NCBI GenBank assembly: GCA_965262615.1
Contig: OZ253545.1
Coordinates: forward strand, 1,408,001-1,472,000
Direction of reading: 5' to 3'
DNA from: Alphaproteobacteria bacterium
Lineage (GTDB): Bacteria; Pseudomonadota; Alphaproteobacteria; GM7ARS4; G965262615
Length of the DNA stretch: 64,000 nt
Below the pieces are notes generated by a model. It saw only the letters and a list, made by a program, of their open reading frames with translations, searched no databases and was not told the DNA's origin. The translations under genes were made by a program, and so were the position numbers. Each line of letters begins with the position of its first letter. Positions within the stretch are counted from its first letter, which is position 1. This document shows, in pieces, positions 51,177 to 59,377 of the stretch.

Positions 51177-52760
51177 ATGAGAATTGTCACATTCCTCATC
51201 GCGATGGTGCTGTCATCGGTGACTGTCGTGCATGGCTATGAGCTGCCGTGGAAAAAGGAGTCATTTTCCTATTACGGCAATGGAGAGTCACTCACTCAGG
51301 TGCTCAACAATTTTTCATTGAGCGTGGGAACGCACATCATCGTCAGCGATCAGGTGACAGGAACGCTGCAAGGTGCGTATTTTGCTCCCACAGCGCAGCA
51401 TTTCTTGCATCAATTGAGTGAACGGTACGGTTTGGTGTGGTATTACGATGGCGAGGTGTTGTATGTCTATCATCGCAACCAGTTGCAACAACGCCATCTT
51501 CATTCCGACATGATGACCGCGAGCGAATTGCAAAGACGCATTGAAAATCATCCCGCATGGAATCATCGCTACCAAATCTACACAGATGACACCGATGAGC
51601 AGGTGATTGTCACCGCGCCACCCCGTCTGATGGCGTTGCTGGAGAATTGGCTGGAGCAATGGAAAGAAGAGGAATCCTCAAGTCTTTATGTGAGTCGTAT
51701 TTTTCAGCTGCGCTATGCGTGGGCGACCGACAAAAAATTCAAAAACCGAGATGACACCATCGTGATTCCGGGCGTGGTGACGCTGCTGAAGAAAATCTTT
51801 GCCGGACAAGTCCCGCCGCCAAAAACCGAACAGACACCTCATGACAGAACCGCCAAAGGCGTTCTGGAGAACACGAAAAACCCCACCCAGACACAAACAG
51901 ACCCCAAGCCTATTTTTGACACACGCAATGATGTGCGCATTGAAGCAGATGTGCGTCTCAATGCGATTGTTATTCACGCGCCGCGCTATCAAATGGCGAT
52001 GTATGAAGAACTGATTGCCGAACTGGATGCTCCCGCAGGATTGATTGAAATTGAGGCAATGGTGGTGGATGTTTCCATTGAGAAAAGTGACGAGTTGGGC
52101 ATTTCGTGGCGACTCAGCAATGACCGCCATGCCATTGGCTACGGCACAATTGACAGCTCACTCAGTGTGGGCGAGGTGGTTGCCAATGTGGGTGCCGGGG
52201 TGAATTTTTCCACCCTGGCGGCATCGGGGGCACGGCAATTTTTGAGCCGTATCAGTGCCCTGAAAACGCAAGGCAACGCGCGCGTGATGTCACGCCCGTC
52301 TGTGCTCACCATTGATAATTTTGAGGCGGTGCTGGATTTGCATCAAACCTTTCATGTGCGGGTGGCGGGTCATGAGGCGGTGGAGCTCTATCCCATCACG
52401 GTGGGCACATTGCTCAAGGTGACGCCTCACATTATTGCGTCTCGTAAGGATCGCGGCATTCAGCTGGCGATTGCCATTGAGGATGGCAGTATTCTGCAGC
52501 AAACGGTGGATAACATTCCCATTGTTCGCAACAACACCATCAACACCCAAGCCATTATTGGCGAGCATCAGAGCCTGCTCATTGGCGGACACTATTATGA
52601 GAGCGAGAGCGATCGCGATGAGGGCATTCCCATTTTGCAAGACCTGCCGTTGATTGGCATGCTGTTCAGCCGTGAGCGCACCGAGCGCACCCGCATTGAG
52701 CGTCTTTATTTAATCACGCCGCGCATTATTGCGTTGCCCTCTGCCATGCTTCAGAATTGA
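51177..52760 (+). CDS. sctC: T3SS secretin
   Basis: LVWYYDGEVLYVY, LRYAWATD, PGVVTLL, SRPSVLT, IPILQDLPLIGMLF. Confidence 0.93.
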   Translation: MRIVTFLIAMVLSSVTVVHGYELPWKKESFSYYGNGESLTQVLNNFSLSVGTHIIVSDQVTGTLQGAYFAPTAQHFLHQLSERYGLVWYYDGEVLYVYHRNQLQQRHLHSDMMTASELQRRIENHPAWNHRYQIYTDDTDEQVIVTAPPRLMALLENWLEQWKEEESSSLYVSRIFQLRYAWATDKKFKNRDDTIVIPGVVTLLKKIFAGQVPPPKTEQTPHDRTAKGVLENTKNPTQTQTDPKPIFDTRNDVRIEADVRLNAIVIHAPRYQMAMYEELIAELDAPAGLIEIEAMVVDVSIEKSDELGISWRLSNDRHAIGYGTIDSSLSVGEVVANVGAGVNFSTLAASGARQFLSRISALKTQGNARVMSRPSVLTIDNFEAVLDLHQTFHVRVAGHEAVELYPITVGTLLKVTPHIIASRKDRGIQLAIAIEDGSILQQTVDNIPIVRNNTINTQAIIGEHQSLLIGGHYYESESDRDEGIPILQDLPLIGMLFSRERTERTRIERLYLITPRIIALPSAMLQN

Positions 52761-54152: not shown

Positions 54153-54416
54153 TCAGCGCGCACCACTGATACTTCTTAACTTGATGACTTTTCCATCAAA
54201 GGTGTAAAATAACCTGTAGTGGTCACCCTTTATCGCTGTCGAGAACGGAACAACCCACAAATTATCCTTGCCACTGGCTAATTTGCCAAAATGAGGCTCG
54301 GAGCGAAGAACTAAAATAAGACCTCTCAAAGGTGTTGCAAAATCATCCTTGTGGATTTCCGTTAATCTTTCTACTCGTCTTTTAAATTTCTCTTCTAAAT
54401 GAATTTCATAATTCAT
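54153..54416 (-). CDS. Putative RelE/ParE-like toxin
   Basis: 87 aa, basic, P.FG...YRLFY pattern; ATGA-coupled to the antitoxin. Confidence 0.6.
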   Translation of the reverse strand: MNYEIHLEEKFKRRVERLTEIHKDDFATPLRGLILVLRSEPHFGKLASGKDNLWVVPFSTAIKGDHYRLFYTFDGKVIKLRSISGAR

Positions 54417-54982
54417 GCTGCTTCCTCTAAATCTTCTTCTGTCAAATCATCGCTATTCATGACAAAAATAGCCTCATAGGGAATGACATCACCTTGCTTG
54501 AATGCACTCCATGCGGGGTATGTGTGTGATAATGCGGTGACCTCACTTGCGCTCTTGTCTTTGAGCTCCAAAACGATGTCATCAATGAGCATGATTTCAT
54601 CTTTGGTGAAATCACTCATATCTGCTTCTTGCTCATGTTTTATTTTTTTCTGCCCCAACCCGTGATATTTTTCATCTTTGACAGAGCACAAACCCTCCCC
54701 CACCATTTCACTGATGAGAGAATTGATTTTTTGCGGAACGGGACCATTAGGCATGACAAGATACCGATACCATGTAATCGCACTGCGCAATTTCATGAAG
54801 GCAAAGAAATCACAAAAGAACAAAATTTTGTCCAATTTTTTCACGCCAAAAGACGCATCGCTTTCGGACTTTTGCGCGATGTAAAGAATCAGATTTTTCA
54901 TCTTTGCATGGTCGGACTCGTGGCTCTCGCCCACTGACGGTGCTAATATGGCATCCAACAAAGAATTATTTTGCGCGGTCAT
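54413..54982 (-). CDS. Panacea (DUF4065/SocA-like) antitoxin
   Basis: KKLDKILFFCDF, AITW, NGPVP, LSH...W. Confidence 0.82.
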   Translation of the reverse strand: MTAQNNSLLDAILAPSVGESHESDHAKMKNLILYIAQKSESDASFGVKKLDKILFFCDFFAFMKLRSAITWYRYLVMPNGPVPQKINSLISEMVGEGLCSVKDEKYHGLGQKKIKHEQEADMSDFTKDEIMLIDDIVLELKDKSASEVTALSHTYPAWSAFKQGDVIPYEAIFVMNSDDLTEEDLEEAA

Positions 54983-55091
54983 CGTCCATCTCCAGCCCAT
55001 AGATATAAAACACTTTACCATCAAACGCAACAGCGTCACCTGACACCTTTTGACGCACACACATTCATCATTTGGTATCATTTAGGATTAT

Positions 55092-55505
55092 TCAGCGCGC
55101 GTTTTGTATCCTGATGATGTCCTTTTCGTTTTTATTGACCCTTTCGCCAAGCACATGCATTTCGCTCATGTGCACATTGAAACGGTCATCAATGCCGTTG
55201 AGCCTGTTATACATATAACCCATTTGCTGTTCTATGTTGATGAGGCGTTCGCCATGTTCTTCTTGGGTGCGTTTGATGGCAGCCGTATCCTGTTGAATCA
55301 AGGACACATCGCTCTGTATTTTAGCAACATTTGCTTCTATTCTGCTGATATCCTCCCTCATTTCACTGAGATCCATGCGCGGTGCAAAATGCAAAGTGGC
55401 AAGAATCATGGCAAGAAACACAAGACCCAAGGCGACACCGCCGAGAATTGCGTTGTTTCTTTCAATCCAGTTTGCCAATTTACCTGCCACCAACAGCTCA
55501 CTCAT
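55092..55505 (-). CDS. Membrane segment + coiled-coil protein, paralog A
   Basis: GGAGG ribosome-binding site; near-identical to the adjacent paralog with 7 extra residues. Confidence 0.75.
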   Translation of the reverse strand: MSELLVAGKLANWIERNNAILGGVALGLVFLAMILATLHFAPRMDLSEMREDISRIEANVAKIQSDVSLIQQDTAAIKRTQEEHGERLINIEQQMGYMYNRLNGIDDRFNVHMSEMHVLGERVNKNEKDIIRIQNAR

Positions 55506-55620
55506 AGAATCCCTCCGAATACTTAGTGGTAATTTAATATCTTTGATCGGCAAACGCAATAGCGTCACCTGACACCTTTTGACGCACACACATTCGTCAT
55601 TTGGCATCATTTGGCATTAT

Positions 55621-56013
55621 TCAGCGGGCGTTTTGTATCCTGATAATGTCCTTTTCGTTCTTATTGACCCTTTCGCCAAGCACATGCATTTCACTCATGT
55701 GCACATTGAAACGGTCATCAATGCCGTTGAGCCTGTTATACATATAACCCATTTGCTGTTCTATGTTGATGAGGCGTTCGCCGTGTTGTTCTTGGGTGCG
55801 TCTGATGGCAGCCGTATCCTGTTTAACGGAGGATACATCTTGCCGTATTTGAGCAATATCCTCCCTCATTTCACTGAGATCCATGCGCGGTGCAAAATAC
55901 AAGGTGGCAATGATCATGGAAAGAAACACAAGACCCAAGGCGACACCGCCGAGAATTGCGTTGTTTCTTTCAATCCAGTTTGCCAATTTACCTGCCACCA
56001 AAAACTCACTCAT
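55621..56013 (-). CDS. Membrane segment + coiled-coil protein, paralog B
   Basis: Tandem duplicate of 55092-55505. Confidence 0.75.
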   Translation of the reverse strand: MSEFLVAGKLANWIERNNAILGGVALGLVFLSMIIATLYFAPRMDLSEMREDIAQIRQDVSSVKQDTAAIRRTQEQHGERLINIEQQMGYMYNRLNGIDDRFNVHMSEMHVLGERVNKNEKDIIRIQNAR

Positions 56014-56219
56014 AGAATCCCTCCGAATACTTAGTGGCAATATAATCCTTTTCGCCATCAATCGCAATAGTCACTTGACACCCTTGAATTCGCGCCCATT
56101 TATCTTTTGCGATGGGGGGGATTTTTATAAAACTTTTAGTTGTATTTATGTGAGATGTGGTGTATGATGAGTGCCATGACCCACCTTGATTTTTATCGCG
56201 TTTTATCACACCATCACTG

Positions 56220-56348
56220 TGTCGAGACAAGACACCCACTGAGGTTGGGTGTCCCATTGAATACAACACCCAACGGCTTGCCGTCAGTGCGAGCTGCGGC
56301 TGGCTTATGGGAAATAGGTGGGGATGCGACAGTGTCTTGTGCTCGACA
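56220..56348 (+). ncRNA. Unassigned structured RNA, copy 1
   Basis: Closing stem TGTCGAG-ACAAGACAC / GTGTCTTGT-G-CTCGACA, 9-bp inner hairpin, GCGA tetraloop. Confidence 0.75.
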
Positions 56349-56493
56349 ACACCCAATCAATGGGTGTTTCAGCGAAACAGGAGCTGTGCCGTGAAAACAC
56401 AACCTTGGTGGATGATTGTTTGTCTAAGGTGGGGTGCGTGATGAGTGTCATGACCCATCTTGATTTTTGCCGTGTTTTATCACACCATCACTG

Positions 56494-56622
56494 TGCCGAT
56501 ACAGAACACCCACCTCGGTTGGGTGTCTCGCTAAATACAATACCCAGCCGCTTGTCATCAGCGAAAGCTACGGCTTGCCTACGGGAAATAAGCGGGGATA
56601 CTACAGTGTTCTGTTATCGGCA
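56494..56622 (+). ncRNA. Unassigned structured RNA, copy 2
   Basis: Closing stem TGCCGATACAGAACAC / GTGTTCTGTTATCGGCA, GAAA tetraloop. Confidence 0.75.
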
Positions 56623-56766
56623 ACGCCCAATCAATGGGTGTTTCAGCGAAACAGGAGCTGTGCCGTGAGAACACAACCTTGGTGGATGATTGTTTGTCTA
56701 AGGTGGGGTGCATGATGATTCTCATGACCCGCCTTGATTTTTGTCGTGTTTTATCACACTATCTTT

Positions 56767-56896
56767 TTACGGAAAGTGGAACGCCCACTAGGGTTGGGTG
56801 TCCCACCAAATACAACACCCAACGGCTTGCCGACAGTGCAAGCTGTCACTGCCTATGGGAAATAGGTGGGGAGACAAAGCGTTTCACTTTCCGTAA
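56767..56896 (+). ncRNA. Unassigned structured RNA, copy 3
   Basis: 18-bp closing stem TTACGGAAAGTGGAACGC / GCGTTTCACTTTCCGTAA, GCAA tetraloop. Confidence 0.75.
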
Positions 56897-56944
56897 CACC
56901 CAATCACTGGGTGCTATCTTGAAGAGTGAAACAGGAGCTTTGTT

Positions 56945-57388
56945 GTGAAAACACAACCTTGGTGGATTGTTTTTTGTTTCGTATTGGTCATCACATCGGC
57001 TCATGGCGATGGCACGGTTATGAAGTATCCTATCTCGGCGCGCGCCATGCGGGTCATTGATGGTGACAGCATCGTCATCTCGGCACACCTTTGGCTCAAT
57101 CTCTATCAAGAAACCGTTTTGCGTCTTGCCCATGTGGATGCTCCCGAACTCAGAGGCAAGTGTCCCGAAGAAAAAGTCAAAGCCGAAGAAGCGTTGCGAT
57201 TCGTCAAACAATGGCTTGAAGGCAGCGACACGCTGACCATTCATGATATCAAACAAGGCAAATTCGGCGGACGGGTCGTGGGACGCATCACCAACGAACG
57301 CAATGAAGACTTAGGACAATTGCTGCTGGCAAGACAACTGGCGCATCCCTACACAGGAGAACGCCGCCGCAGCTGGTGTGTTTCGTGA
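56945..57388 (+). CDS. Thermonuclease (SNase)-family protein with a signal peptide
   Basis: RVIDGDS, LRLAHVDAPE, KFGGRVV, DLGQLLL...LA..Y. Confidence 0.9.
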   Translation: MKTQPWWIVFCFVLVITSAHGDGTVMKYPISARAMRVIDGDSIVISAHLWLNLYQETVLRLAHVDAPELRGKCPEEKVKAEEALRFVKQWLEGSDTLTIHDIKQGKFGGRVVGRITNERNEDLGQLLLARQLAHPYTGERRRSWCVS

Positions 57389-57396
57389 AAACATTT

Positions 57397-57440
57397 AATG
57401 ATGACCAATTCATCATTTCATCATTTCATCATTTCATCAT
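57397..57440. repeat. (TTCATCAT)x4 with an upstream complementary AATGATGA; possible terminator between convergent genes
   Basis: Read directly. Confidence 0.55.
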
Positions 57441-59377
57441 GATAAGTTTTTGTGTCCTTTAATGAGATCTTCCACCACTGAGGGGTCGGCAAGAGTGGAA
57501 GTATCCCCGAGCTCGTCATATTCATGGGCGGCGATTTTACGCAAAATGCGCCGCATAATCTTGCCGGATCGCGTCTTGGGCAAGCCCGAAGCCCACTGAA
57601 TCACCTCAGGGGCGGCAAAAGCTCCAATGGCTTTACGCACATCCTGCACCAATTGCTGACGCAGCTCGTCATCGCCCTCAACGCCCGCCATGGGGGTGAC
57701 ATAGGCATAAATCGCCTGCCCCTTGACATCATGCGGCGCACCCACAACGGCAGCTTCCGCGATGGAATCATGCGCCACCATCGCCGATTCCACCTCAGCC
57801 GTGCCAATGCGATGACCGGACACATTGATGACATCATCCATCCTGCCGGTAATCCAGTAATAACCATCCTTGTCGCGCCGACAGCCATCACCCGAAAAAT
57901 AGTAGCCCTTGTAGGTGGAAAAATACACCTGCTCAAAGCGGGCATGATCCCGATAAACAGTCCGCATCATACCGGGCCACGGCTCCTTGATACAAAGCCC
58001 GCCGCGACACTCCCCTTCCAGTTCCTTGCCGTCACTATCCACAATGACCGGCTTGACGCCAAAAAACGGCAGTGTCGCCGACCCCGCCTTCAACGGCACA
58101 GCTCCCGCGAGCGGCGTAATCAGAATGCCGCCCGTTTCCGTCTGCCACCATGTGTCCACAATGGGGCAGCGTCCATCGCCCACCGTGTGATAATACCACT
58201 CCCACGCCTCAGGATTGATGGGTTCTCCCACCGACCCCAACAGACGCAATGAACTGCGTTTGCACGATTGCACCCACTTGTCACCCTCACGCATCAAGGC
58301 ACGAATGGCGGTGGGCGCGGTGTAGAAAATGCTCACTTTGTGTTTATCCACCACCTGCCAAAAACGCGAGGCATCAGGATAATTGGGCACGCCCTCAAAC
58401 ATCAGCGTGGTCGCCCCATTGGCAAGAGGCCCATACACAATGTAACTATGACCCGTCACCCATCCCACATCGGCGGTGCACCAGTAGATGTCACCCTCTT
58501 GGTAATCAAAAACATATTTGAAGGTCATGGAGGCATAGAGCAGGTATCCGCCTGTGGTGTGCAAAACGCCTTTGGGCTTGCCGGTAGAACCTGATGTGTA
58601 AAGAATAAACAGCGGGTCTTCGGCATTCATGGGCTCTGGAGGACAGTCGGTGCTGGCGGCATCCACGAGAGTTGTATAATCCACATCGCGCCCCTCTTGC
58701 CAATTGATGTCCCCTCCCGTTCGTTTGAACACAACCACATGTTTGACTTGAGGACACTGCTTGAGAGCCTCATCGGTATTGGCTTTGAGAGGAATAGCCC
58801 GTCCGCCGCGCACCCCCTCATCCGCCGTGATGACATAGTGGGAATCGCAATCGTTAATGCGTCCCGCAAGAGAATCAGGGGCAAAGCCGCCAAACACCAC
58901 CGAATGAATCGCGCCAATACGAGTGCATGCCAGCATCGCCACCGCCGCCTCCACCACCATCGGCATGTAGATGGTCACGCGATCGCCCTTGCTCACGCCC
59001 AACGACTTCAATCCATTGGCAAGACGGCACACCTTTTCATGCAATTGCCGATAGGTGATGTGACAATCATCGCTGGGCTCATCCCCCTCATGAATGATGG
59101 CAATCTCATCGCCTCGTGTCGCCAAGTGGCGATCCACACAATTGGCACAGACATTCAGCACCCCGTCTTCAAACCAACGGACATGCACTGCGTCACCAAA
59201 CGAAAAATCTCGCACTTTTGTAAAGGGCTTCATCCAATCCAGACGCTGCATCGCCTGTTTGCGCCAGAAGTTCTCGGTGTCACCCACAGATTCTTCATAC
59301 AAGGCGGCGCGCTCAGAGCCATTGATGAGAGCCTTTGCTTCCCACTCTTTTTTCACAGGATATGTGTGGTCGTTCAT
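57437..59377 (-). CDS. acs: Acetyl-CoA synthetase
   Basis: [27 protein letters not shown]. Confidence 0.98.

Follow-up and report, generated by a model that had tools for sequence, protein, structure and literature searches.

Why should three diverged copies of one structured RNA stand in tandem before a nuclease gene? The question is raised by positions 56150-57388 of a 64,000-nucleotide stretch of DNA (the window: assembly GCA_965262615.1, contig OZ253545.1, positions 1,408,001 to 1,472,000, from an Alphaproteobacteria bacterium of the GM7ARS4 lineage), where an initial annotation had noticed the array and judged its RNAs unassignable to a known family. Comparison of covariance models places these RNAs as a divergent branch of the known family sRNA-Xcc1 (Rfam: RF02221). 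Furthermore, a variable segment of each RNA, termed a' below, pairs with an adjacent upstream segment, a1, and in the wider family the segment in the same place shows complementarity to the ribosome site of the gene that follows. We propose, with a probability of roughly 0.55, that the RNAs are leader antisense RNAs that work like the c4 RNA of phage P1 and the CI RNA of phage P4. The main interest lies in the mechanism this offers for a widespread family, and less in the array itself.

The tandem RNAs and the sRNA-Xcc1 family

In an E-value scan of Rfam over positions 55000-58000, units 3 and 2 of the array matched RF02221 with 23.9 and 21.4 bits, all other matches being at chance level, and unit 1 was matched with 16.5 bits when the model was run over the whole genome (1,542,258 bp, one contig). 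The Rfam check suggested in the initial annotation thus finds the same family in all units, but below its gathering cut-off of 53 bits. Over the genome the model gave 18 matches at E <= 10, the best with 41.2 bits (E 4.6e-6), and 17 of these share an obvious common core. The 17 were aligned, and a covariance model (R1) was built from the alignment. In this alignment pairing amounts to 96.7% for the helix P1, where 5 pairs differ on both sides, and to 97% for P2, where 4 do; the covariation score was reached by 0 of 500 shuffles, and sliding the partners against each other lowered pairing from 89.5% to 32-54%. All 17 copies carry the motif AAUACAA unchanged, facing an almost invariant strand G(G/U)(A/G)AAUA. 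These results and the Rfam alignment show that P1, P2, P2b and the AAUACAA / GG(G)AAAU internal loop of RF02221 are all present.

The model R1 finds three RNAs about 1 kb apart in another genome (G017) at E ~1e-7, and these score 55.8-57.9 bits with RF02221, above its cut-off. This reciprocal detection with RNAs that themselves pass the Rfam model identifies the window RNAs as a divergent sRNA-Xcc1 branch. The earlier view that they belong to no known family does not hold in the face of the sub-threshold RF02221 matches, the paralogues described next and the reciprocal members in G017; a sub-threshold Rfam match together with a paralogue search in the same genome sufficed to place an RNA that had seemed unassignable.

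Within its own genome R1 detects 22 copies at E <= 3.4e-8 (window units 70.5-75.4 bits), which fall into seven arrays of 2-3 copies and five single copies. The arrays begin at genome positions 570659, 683168, 827857, 866056, 1348790, 1392373 and 1464244, the last being that of the window. The array is thus not special to the nuclease but one of seven in the genome. The other six extend over 570659-570960, 683168-683440, 827857-828136, 866056-866726, 1348790-1349049 and 1392373-1392826; some of their members stand before tiny frames (MTLITYQEASETPPHR, MTPIAFQNTTPSRPSLS), and terminal members before lipoprotein, DUF6804 or YHYH genes. Linkage to thermonuclease genes, which had been put forward as a check, does not extend to the family, whose downstream genes encode lipoproteins, DUF6804 and YHYH proteins, antirepressors and Rha. 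Elsewhere R1 matched 5 of 60 other genomes of the same class and none of three genomes of the same order. Of 151 genomes of the phylum searched with RF02221, 24 have a match exceeding the cut-off and 35 one at E <= 1e-4, the present genome being included in both counts.

Organization of the array

Tandem Repeats Finder reports a period of 274 with 2.6 copies over 56159-56872, and a repeat search of the window gives head-to-tail spacings of 274 and 274-280 over ~56150-56975; mean column identity across the three-unit alignment is 88%. Each unit presents, in order, TTGATT-N17-CAC(C/T)AT, a covarying fold of ~115-140 nt, AGGAG, a GTG start and the first 16 nuclease codons, with the whole nuclease reading frame only after unit 3 and 16-codon stubs behind units 1 and 2. 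The tandem period, the TTGATT-N17-CAC(C/T)AT sequence of every unit and both stubs had been described before and are confirmed here. The features, all on the plus strand, are:

56186-56214 (+): unit 1, promoter-like site TTGATT-N17-CACCAT, read from the sequence
56220-56235 (+): unit 1, a1, the 5' arm of the closing stem; partner a' at 56332-56348; duplex -25.0 kcal/mol, z -3.45, 0/300 shuffles
56244-56357 (+): unit 1, sRNA-Xcc1-like core; RF02221 16.5 bits, R1 73.8 bits; P1 56244-56252/56349-56357, P2 56253-56258/56317-56322, AAUACAA loop, GCGA-capped inserted hairpin 56280-56300, GGGAAAUA, a' 56332-56348
56379-56441 (+): unit 1, AGGAG, GTG start at 56391, 16-codon nuclease stub
56460-56488 (+): unit 2, promoter-like site
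56494-56509 (+): unit 2, a1; partner a' at 56606-56622; -25.0 kcal/mol, z -4.56, 1/300 shuffles
56518-56631 (+): unit 2, sRNA-Xcc1-like core with GAAA-capped insert; RF02221 21.4 bits, R1 75.4 bits
56653-56715 (+): unit 2, AGGAG, GTG start at 56665, 16-codon stub; start region UGCCGUGAGAACAC complementary to unit 2 a'
56734-56762 (+): unit 3, promoter-like site with CACTAT
56768-56784 (+): unit 3, a1; partner a' at 56879-56895, 17 continuous pairs; -28.1 kcal/mol, z -5.75, 0/300 shuffles
56793-56904 (+): unit 3, sRNA-Xcc1-like core with GCAA-capped insert; RF02221 23.9 bits (E 0.49), R1 70.5 bits
56921-56937 (+): unit 3, a2 (GAAGAGUGAAAC), beside the Shine-Dalgarno sequence AGGAG and complementary to unit 3 a'; -20.2 kcal/mol
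56945-57388 (+): gene of the thermonuclease family (SNase), beginning with GTG and encoding 147 aa with a hydrophobic N-terminus; from Pfam and homologues

Divergence between the units is concentrated in a1 (16-22 of 29-30 positions identical) and a' (12-19 of 26-27), together with compensatory changes in P2; identity remains at 80-100% in P1, in the loops and at the ribosome site. In detail, identity is 26-27 of 29 in the promoter-like site, 9 of 9 in the P1 5' strand, 8 of 8 in GGGAAAUA, 12-15 of 15 from ribosome site to start and 27-32 of 33 in the stub, with stubs 1 and 2 agreeing at 32 of 33. This is the pattern expected for a specificity segment and its partner. By eye, -35/-10-like hexamers lie at the same distance in other family copies of the genome.

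Fold of the leader RNA

The closing stem noticed in the initial annotation corresponds to a1:a', in which a' lies after P2 and before the P1 3' strand, where other family members have P3. Its 17 pairs are formed in 98% of the alignment cells, 9 of them differ on both sides among the three units, and sliding one partner by 1-3 columns lowers pairing to 36-47%; that it differs between copies yet stays paired was thus a sound observation. The same is true of the GNRA caps, GCGA, GAAA and GCAA, one in each copy, on a hairpin that is 83% paired, and of the pairing of the first hairpin loop (CCCA) with a downstream segment (UGGG), which extends to 6 bp with 2 compensatory pairs; this supposed pseudoknot is the P2 helix of sRNA-Xcc1. 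The covarying helices bear out selection on RNA structure and the status of the units as paralogues. Folding energies are lower than those of shuffled sequences on both strands (z -3.0, -3.6 and -7.3 on the plus strand; -3.6, -2.7 and -4.4 on the minus strand), so the strand is set by the G-U pairs rather than by energy, and these agree with the plus-strand RNA originally proposed.

A conserved inner hairpin, GUUGGGUGU/ACACCCAAC, had also been described. It shows no compensatory change among the three units and competes with P1, in which GUUGGGUGU pairs with ACACCCAAU at the 3' end. P1 likewise lacks compensatory change among the three units but does show it in the 17-copy alignment. Copies with a long P2b insert (e.g. 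570659, 937451, 961127 and the window units) have GAC or AAC after AAUACAAN-ACCC, and this trinucleotide always matches the P1 5' strand of the same copy (GUCGGG or GUUGGG); between subfamilies, the inner hairpin thus covaries. Such covariation could reflect a genuine alternative pairing, or else the way in which the insert arose.

The closing stem and P1 cross, and they are therefore alternative states unless pseudoknotted. RNAfold predicts that the full leader forms the closing stem and a small hairpin in which the P1 3' strand pairs with a second P1 5' strand sequence farther downstream (-75.0, -66.4 and -81.8 kcal/mol), that a leader lacking a1 has a' paired to the Shine-Dalgarno region, and that the core alone takes the Xcc1 fold in units 1 (P1+P2+P2b, -47.4 kcal/mol) and 3 (-43.1 kcal/mol).

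Pairing partners of a'

Against 300 dinucleotide shuffles the a1:a' pairing reaches z <= -3 in 10 of the 22 copies of the genome, all three window units included, and in 10 of 22 it beats every non-cognate pairing. Among 14 copies taken from five other genomes, 7 reach z <= -4. Of the two targets found in the c4 and CI layout, the upstream partner is seen in all three units (z -3.5 to -5.8), whereas the downstream partner is seen in unit 3 (z -2.46), is weak in unit 2 and is absent in unit 1. In unit 3, a' and a2 (GAAGAGUGAAAC) form a predicted duplex of -20.2 kcal/mol, equalled in 11 of 500 shuffles and ranking at 0.0046 among 439 ribosome-site windows. The a' of unit 2 pairs with its own stub start region UGCCGUGAGAACAC at -17.2 kcal/mol (rank 0.023 of 1315 start-codon windows). 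Duplex modeling thus supports pairing of a' with the nuclease-type ribosome site for unit 3, weakly for unit 2 and not for unit 1. Placing the a' of units 1 and 2 across the real nuclease start codon was tried and rejected (RNAduplex -7.3 and -8.0 kcal/mol; ranks 0.88 and 0.66 of 1315).

Further cases come from other genomes. At locus L032 of genome G016, ~18 nt of a' are complementary, by eye, to the sequence just before the ATG (duplex z -7.3), with a similar a1, and among the G017 paralogues a', a1 and a2 appear by eye to differ in a matched way.

Complementarity to the next gene in the wider family

The search was extended to 30 RF02221 loci, one per genome, in 28 of which a ribosome site and ATG were found. 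The 24 nt before the P1 3' strand, comprising P3 and the linker, were compared with the ribosome-site window of the next gene. A perfect complementary run of at least 7 nt is present in 16 of 28 cognate as against 36 of 756 non-cognate pairs, and one of at least 8 nt in 8 of 28 as against 6 of 756, the non-cognate matches coming in part from related loci with a common UUUUCGG linker. Typically, as judged by eye, the P3 loop matches the GGAG-ATG spacer or the bases just 5' of GGAG, and the linker, e.g. UUUUCGG, matches the bases on the other side. Upstream complementarity reaches z <= -2 in 14 of 30 loci in a 30-nt energy test.

Downstream frames were obtained for 21 of the 30 loci, and 10 were run against Pfam: two combine Bro-N with a P22 antirepressor C-terminal domain, two are Rha proteins and six have no family. 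In phage Aaphi23 (NC_004827.1, 1500-1760) an sRNA-Xcc1 scoring 86.1 bits is preceded by the gene of a Q-like antiterminator and followed by ant. The P3 loop, CUGUUUG, is complementary to CAAACAG immediately 5' of the ant GGAG, the linker, UUUCGA, is complementary to UCGAAA, and both words recur ~100 nt upstream, before a terminator-like hairpin. The Aaphi23 record carries no RNA annotation at 1500-1760.

A proposed antisense leader mechanism

The layout described above is that of P4 CI and P1/P7 c4, and from it we propose that sRNA-Xcc1-type RNAs, unit 3 among them, keep translation of the next gene low by pairing of a' with its ribosome site. Each 274-bp unit would give rise to its own leader RNA of this family and consist of the promoter-like site, a1, the core, a', the P1 3' strand, the ribosome site and the reading frame. 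The core itself would comprise P1, P2, the AAUACAA/GGGAAAUA internal loop and P2b with the inserted GNRA-capped hairpin, and the P1 3' strand would have an alternative partner in the copy of the P1 5' strand just downstream. We infer that the units are transcribed, that the RNA is processed or acts on other transcripts, and that regulation is negative and proceeds through a switch of the following kind: 1) in the full primary transcript a1 would pair with a', leaving a' masked and the ribosome site open; 2) an RNA without a1, either processed or acting on another transcript, would take the Xcc1 fold and expose a'; 3) the free a' would pair with a2 at the ribosome site and with the a1 of nascent transcripts, turning the downstream gene off. 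Only unit 3 would control a whole gene, that of the thermonuclease, and units 1 and 2 would be extra, allele-like copies. The conserved loop could additionally bind a protein, which would be compatible with this mechanism.

Several results weigh against the proposal or its parts. All three units score far below the RF02221 cut-off (16.5-23.9 versus 53 bits), and the P3 hairpin was not found: in the window units the P3 columns pair 1-3 of 4 positions, and the segment in that place pairs with the upstream a1 instead. A consensus sigma-70 scan called none of the three promoter-like sites, and a terminator after the core was not called by a scan. The a':a2 pairing of unit 2 is weak on the long window (z about -0.6 to -0.8, rank 0.10) and that of unit 1 is not significant (z -0.6, rank 0.17). 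Over the 22 copies of the genome the mean a2 z is -0.69; a ribosome site and start within 120 nt are recognizable in only 14 of them, and the cognate ranks in these run from 0.005 to 0.91, about half lying between 0.0046 and 0.1025, near the top tenth. In genome G056 three copies with different a' share one downstream ribosome site, which counts against a universal a':a2 rule. In the wider family the looser 30-nt energy test for the next gene was noisy (mean z -1.41, z <= -2 in only 9 of 30 loci). The C4 model (RF01695) matches no copy, its one hit in the genome (E 8.6) lying elsewhere. Finally, counting paralogues and relatives, which are not independent of one another, makes the support look greater than it is.

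Comparison with known systems

Much of what surrounds the family has precedents. Five tandem sRNA-Xcc1 homologues, sXF1-5, occur at ~381-bp spacing in Xylella fastidiosa Temecula1 (PMC12189769), and family members stand upstream of symE in Xanthomonas integron cassettes (10.1101/2025.06.18.660453) and of an ORF6N gene in APSE phages (10.1101/2020.03.17.996009). The array and the position upstream of a gene are thus already in print, and it is as a divergent branch that the window RNAs are new. They share with sRNA-Xcc1 the helices P1, P2 and P2b, the AAUACAA...GG(G)AAAU loop, tandem arrangement and a place upstream of a gene on the same strand. In contrast to it they have a 36-37-nt insertion (in the Rfam alignment) with a GNRA-capped hairpin in the P2b loop, and a' paired to a neighbouring a1 takes the place of the P3 hairpin; their genome differs in holding 22 copies in 1.54 Mb and in having a nuclease, lipoproteins and small secreted or membrane proteins downstream. 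In the literature covered, sRNA-Xcc1 is treated as a trans-acting, virulence-linked small RNA without a mechanism, and neither ribosome-site complementarity nor likeness to c4 or CI was found in the sRNA-Xcc1 literature searched, which did not include Chen et al. 2011.

The closest parallels in layout are phage immunity RNAs. The c4 RNA of phages P1 and P7 is complementary to a1b1 upstream and a2b2 downstream and is processed by RNase P. The leader-derived CI RNA of phage P4 pairs through its loops with seqA upstream and seqC downstream (PMC4825925). Common to these systems and the window are an upstream copy of the target, an antisense segment within a structured RNA and, in the window for unit 3, a predicted downstream target at the ribosome site; the wider sRNA-Xcc1 family is, in addition, linked to antirepressor genes (4 of 10 proteins of antirepressor or Rha types). 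Unlike in the phages, the gene behind unit 3 is that of a chromosomal nuclease and not of an antirepressor. Membership in the C4 family was considered and dropped for want of any covariance-model match to the copies, so the likeness to c4 and CI is one of layout ("works like") and not a shown homology. The IsrK RNA (RF01394) of the Salmonella prophage Gifsy-1 is a further island-encoded leader RNA acting on the translation of a downstream gene, controlling the orf45-anrP antirepressor unit through alternative structures (PMC4825925); it activates rather than represses, had no match at E <= 10 in the Rfam scan of 55000-58000 and, as far as this comparison goes, has an unrelated structure.

Variation between strains

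Contigs of four public runs from one study were compared with the region; among the runs containing the stretch, none is recorded as RNA. In one contig of run X3, 16 other letters replace everything between 56423 and 56994, giving a form in which a single unit-1-like copy, with 8 differences over ~125 nt, stands directly before the nuclease gene. From this form it follows that unit number varies between strains and that a type-1 unit is the sole leader elsewhere. The X3 nuclease gene is ~15% diverged (36 differences in 240 nt). Depth is lower over 56450-56980 in the four runs. Base pairing and the GNRA loop are preserved by the sequence variants that the contigs show: in P2, 56255 C>T changes C-G to U-G and 56257 T>C changes U-G to C-G; in P1, 56351 A>G changes A-U to G-U; and 56291 G>A turns GCGA into GCAA, which is still a GNRA loop. 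Units 1 and 2 may therefore be alleles joined by recombination, which could explain their functional look.

Alternative explanations

Those strain variants bear directly on the view that unequal recombination left units 1 and 2 behind without a function and that only unit 3 matters, the compensatory differences having arisen when the units were single leaders in different strains. The X3 contig, with one unit-1-like copy directly before a diverged nuclease gene, speaks for it, as do the lower depth over 56450-56980, the near identity of stubs 1 and 2 (32/33) and the lack of a good local target for the a' of unit 1. Yet the upstream units each keep a promoter-like site, all helices and a GNRA cap, and the six further arrays of the genome, with those of G017 and Xylella fastidiosa (PMC12189769), suggest that arrays are kept. 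We regard it as somewhat unlikely; it concerns units 1 and 2 only and is compatible with the antisense leader mechanism.

The units could also be three trans-acting small RNAs that act with different seeds (a') on unlinked mRNAs, the adjacent gene being incidental, as the initial annotation had argued from the fold kept by copies 1 and 2. A 2011 article by Chen et al. reportedly calls sRNA-Xcc1 trans-acting in its title. In Xanthomonas campestris, where the family was first found, it is a discrete 88-nt RNA with mapped ends (PMC2996969); units 1 and 2 do keep the fold with only a stub downstream, and arrays whose 2-3 copies differ in a' are usual in the genome. Against this, a genome search for trans sites of the a' of units 1-3 gave nothing beyond 13-15 nt (E 0.25 or worse) apart from the cognate a1, so the argument for trans action finds no target to support it, and a' pairs best with the flanking a1 and, family-wide, with the ribosome site of the next gene. 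This makes trans action improbable. A further possibility is a leader that senses a ligand or protein, in which a factor bound by the AAUACAA/GGGAAAUA loop would shift the balance between the closing-stem and P1 states. Such a leader would fit the invariant loop nucleotides flanked by covarying helices, the mutually exclusive helices (a1:a', P1, and the P1 3' strand with its downstream partner) and the 5' leader location. However, the downstream genes are unrelated (nuclease, lipoproteins, DUF6804, YHYH protein, antirepressors, Rha), which is unlike a metabolite riboswitch, no riboswitch family was matched at E <= 10 in the Rfam scan of 55000-58000, and a hypervariable segment that tracks neighbouring sequence is the mark of antisense specificity; we rate it slightly lower than trans action.

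The initial annotation also drew a loose comparison with type III toxin-antitoxin loci, in which a repeated RNA antitoxin would be processed by, and inhibit, the adjacent nuclease. In ToxIN, short RNA repeats in one transcript are cut by an adjacent endoribonuclease, and the array does resemble this in placing tandem structured RNA repeats upstream of a nuclease gene. The comparison fails on unit size, on the promoter-like site of each unit and on the nuclease family: the 274-nt units each carry a promoter-like and a ribosome site, the protein is of the SNase/thermonuclease type with a hydrophobic N-terminus rather than a ToxN-type endoribonuclease, and family-wide the gene context differs, the same RNA family preceding lipoprotein and antirepressor genes. 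We consider this explanation very improbable. A reading as integron attC sites was dropped as well: GTTGGGT and ACCCAAC match the attC core words, but their order and spacing are unfit and the G-U pairs point to RNA.

The nuclease gene and its surroundings

The protein encoded at 56945-57388 matches Pfam SNase with 19.9 bits, under the cut-off of 21, and has 67 homologues, many of which carry PF00565 or are named thermonuclease family / YncB. In NCBIfam it has only a 15-bit match to thermonuclease NucI, and a PDB sequence search returned nothing below E 0.2. It is putatively secreted, judging by eye from its hydrophobic N-terminus. A perfect 8-nt microsatellite, TTCATCAT x4, lies at 57409-57440 between its stop codon and a convergent acetyl-CoA synthetase gene (57437-59377, minus strand). 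Some 5 kb upstream, a 21-nt word at 52015-52035, within a 527-aa frame (51177-52760, plus strand), is 86% identical to the ...VDAPE-coding stretch of the nuclease gene at 57126-57146, and this frame may encode a second SNase-like domain.

Just upstream of the array, 55003-56070 holds a second tandem duplication with a period of 508-529 bp and 92% identity. It contains two minus-strand frames of 172 and 148 aa, each with a hydrophobic N-terminal stretch and a coiled-coil-like remainder, for which no Pfam family was found above cut-off. On the minus strand at 54153-55081 an 87-aa frame without a family comes after a SocA/Panacea-domain frame (222 aa, 55.6 bits), and the two may constitute a toxin-antitoxin pair; N-terminal words from this region, MIPNDECVCVKRCQVTLLRL, are met again where the next frame, 55092-55610, starts.

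Implications

The sRNA-Xcc1 family is widespread in phages, integron cassettes and genomic islands, and the layout described here offers a concrete mechanism for it and links it to P1 c4 and P4 CI. More tentatively, and at less than even odds, sRNA-Xcc1 as a whole may be a third lineage of c4/CI-type programmable immunity RNAs, multiplied 22-fold here away from phages, with tandem arrays representing alternative specificities or alleles. Its members would then combine a constant scaffold (P1, P2 and the conserved loop) with a swappable antisense word, the P3 loop or a', fitted to the next gene's ribosome site and often also to a self-masking a1. In this 1.54-Mb genome the module would gate a nuclease, lipoproteins and small secreted proteins, and the window would thus present a phage-type module re-used on the chromosome for a potentially harmful, putatively secreted nuclease.

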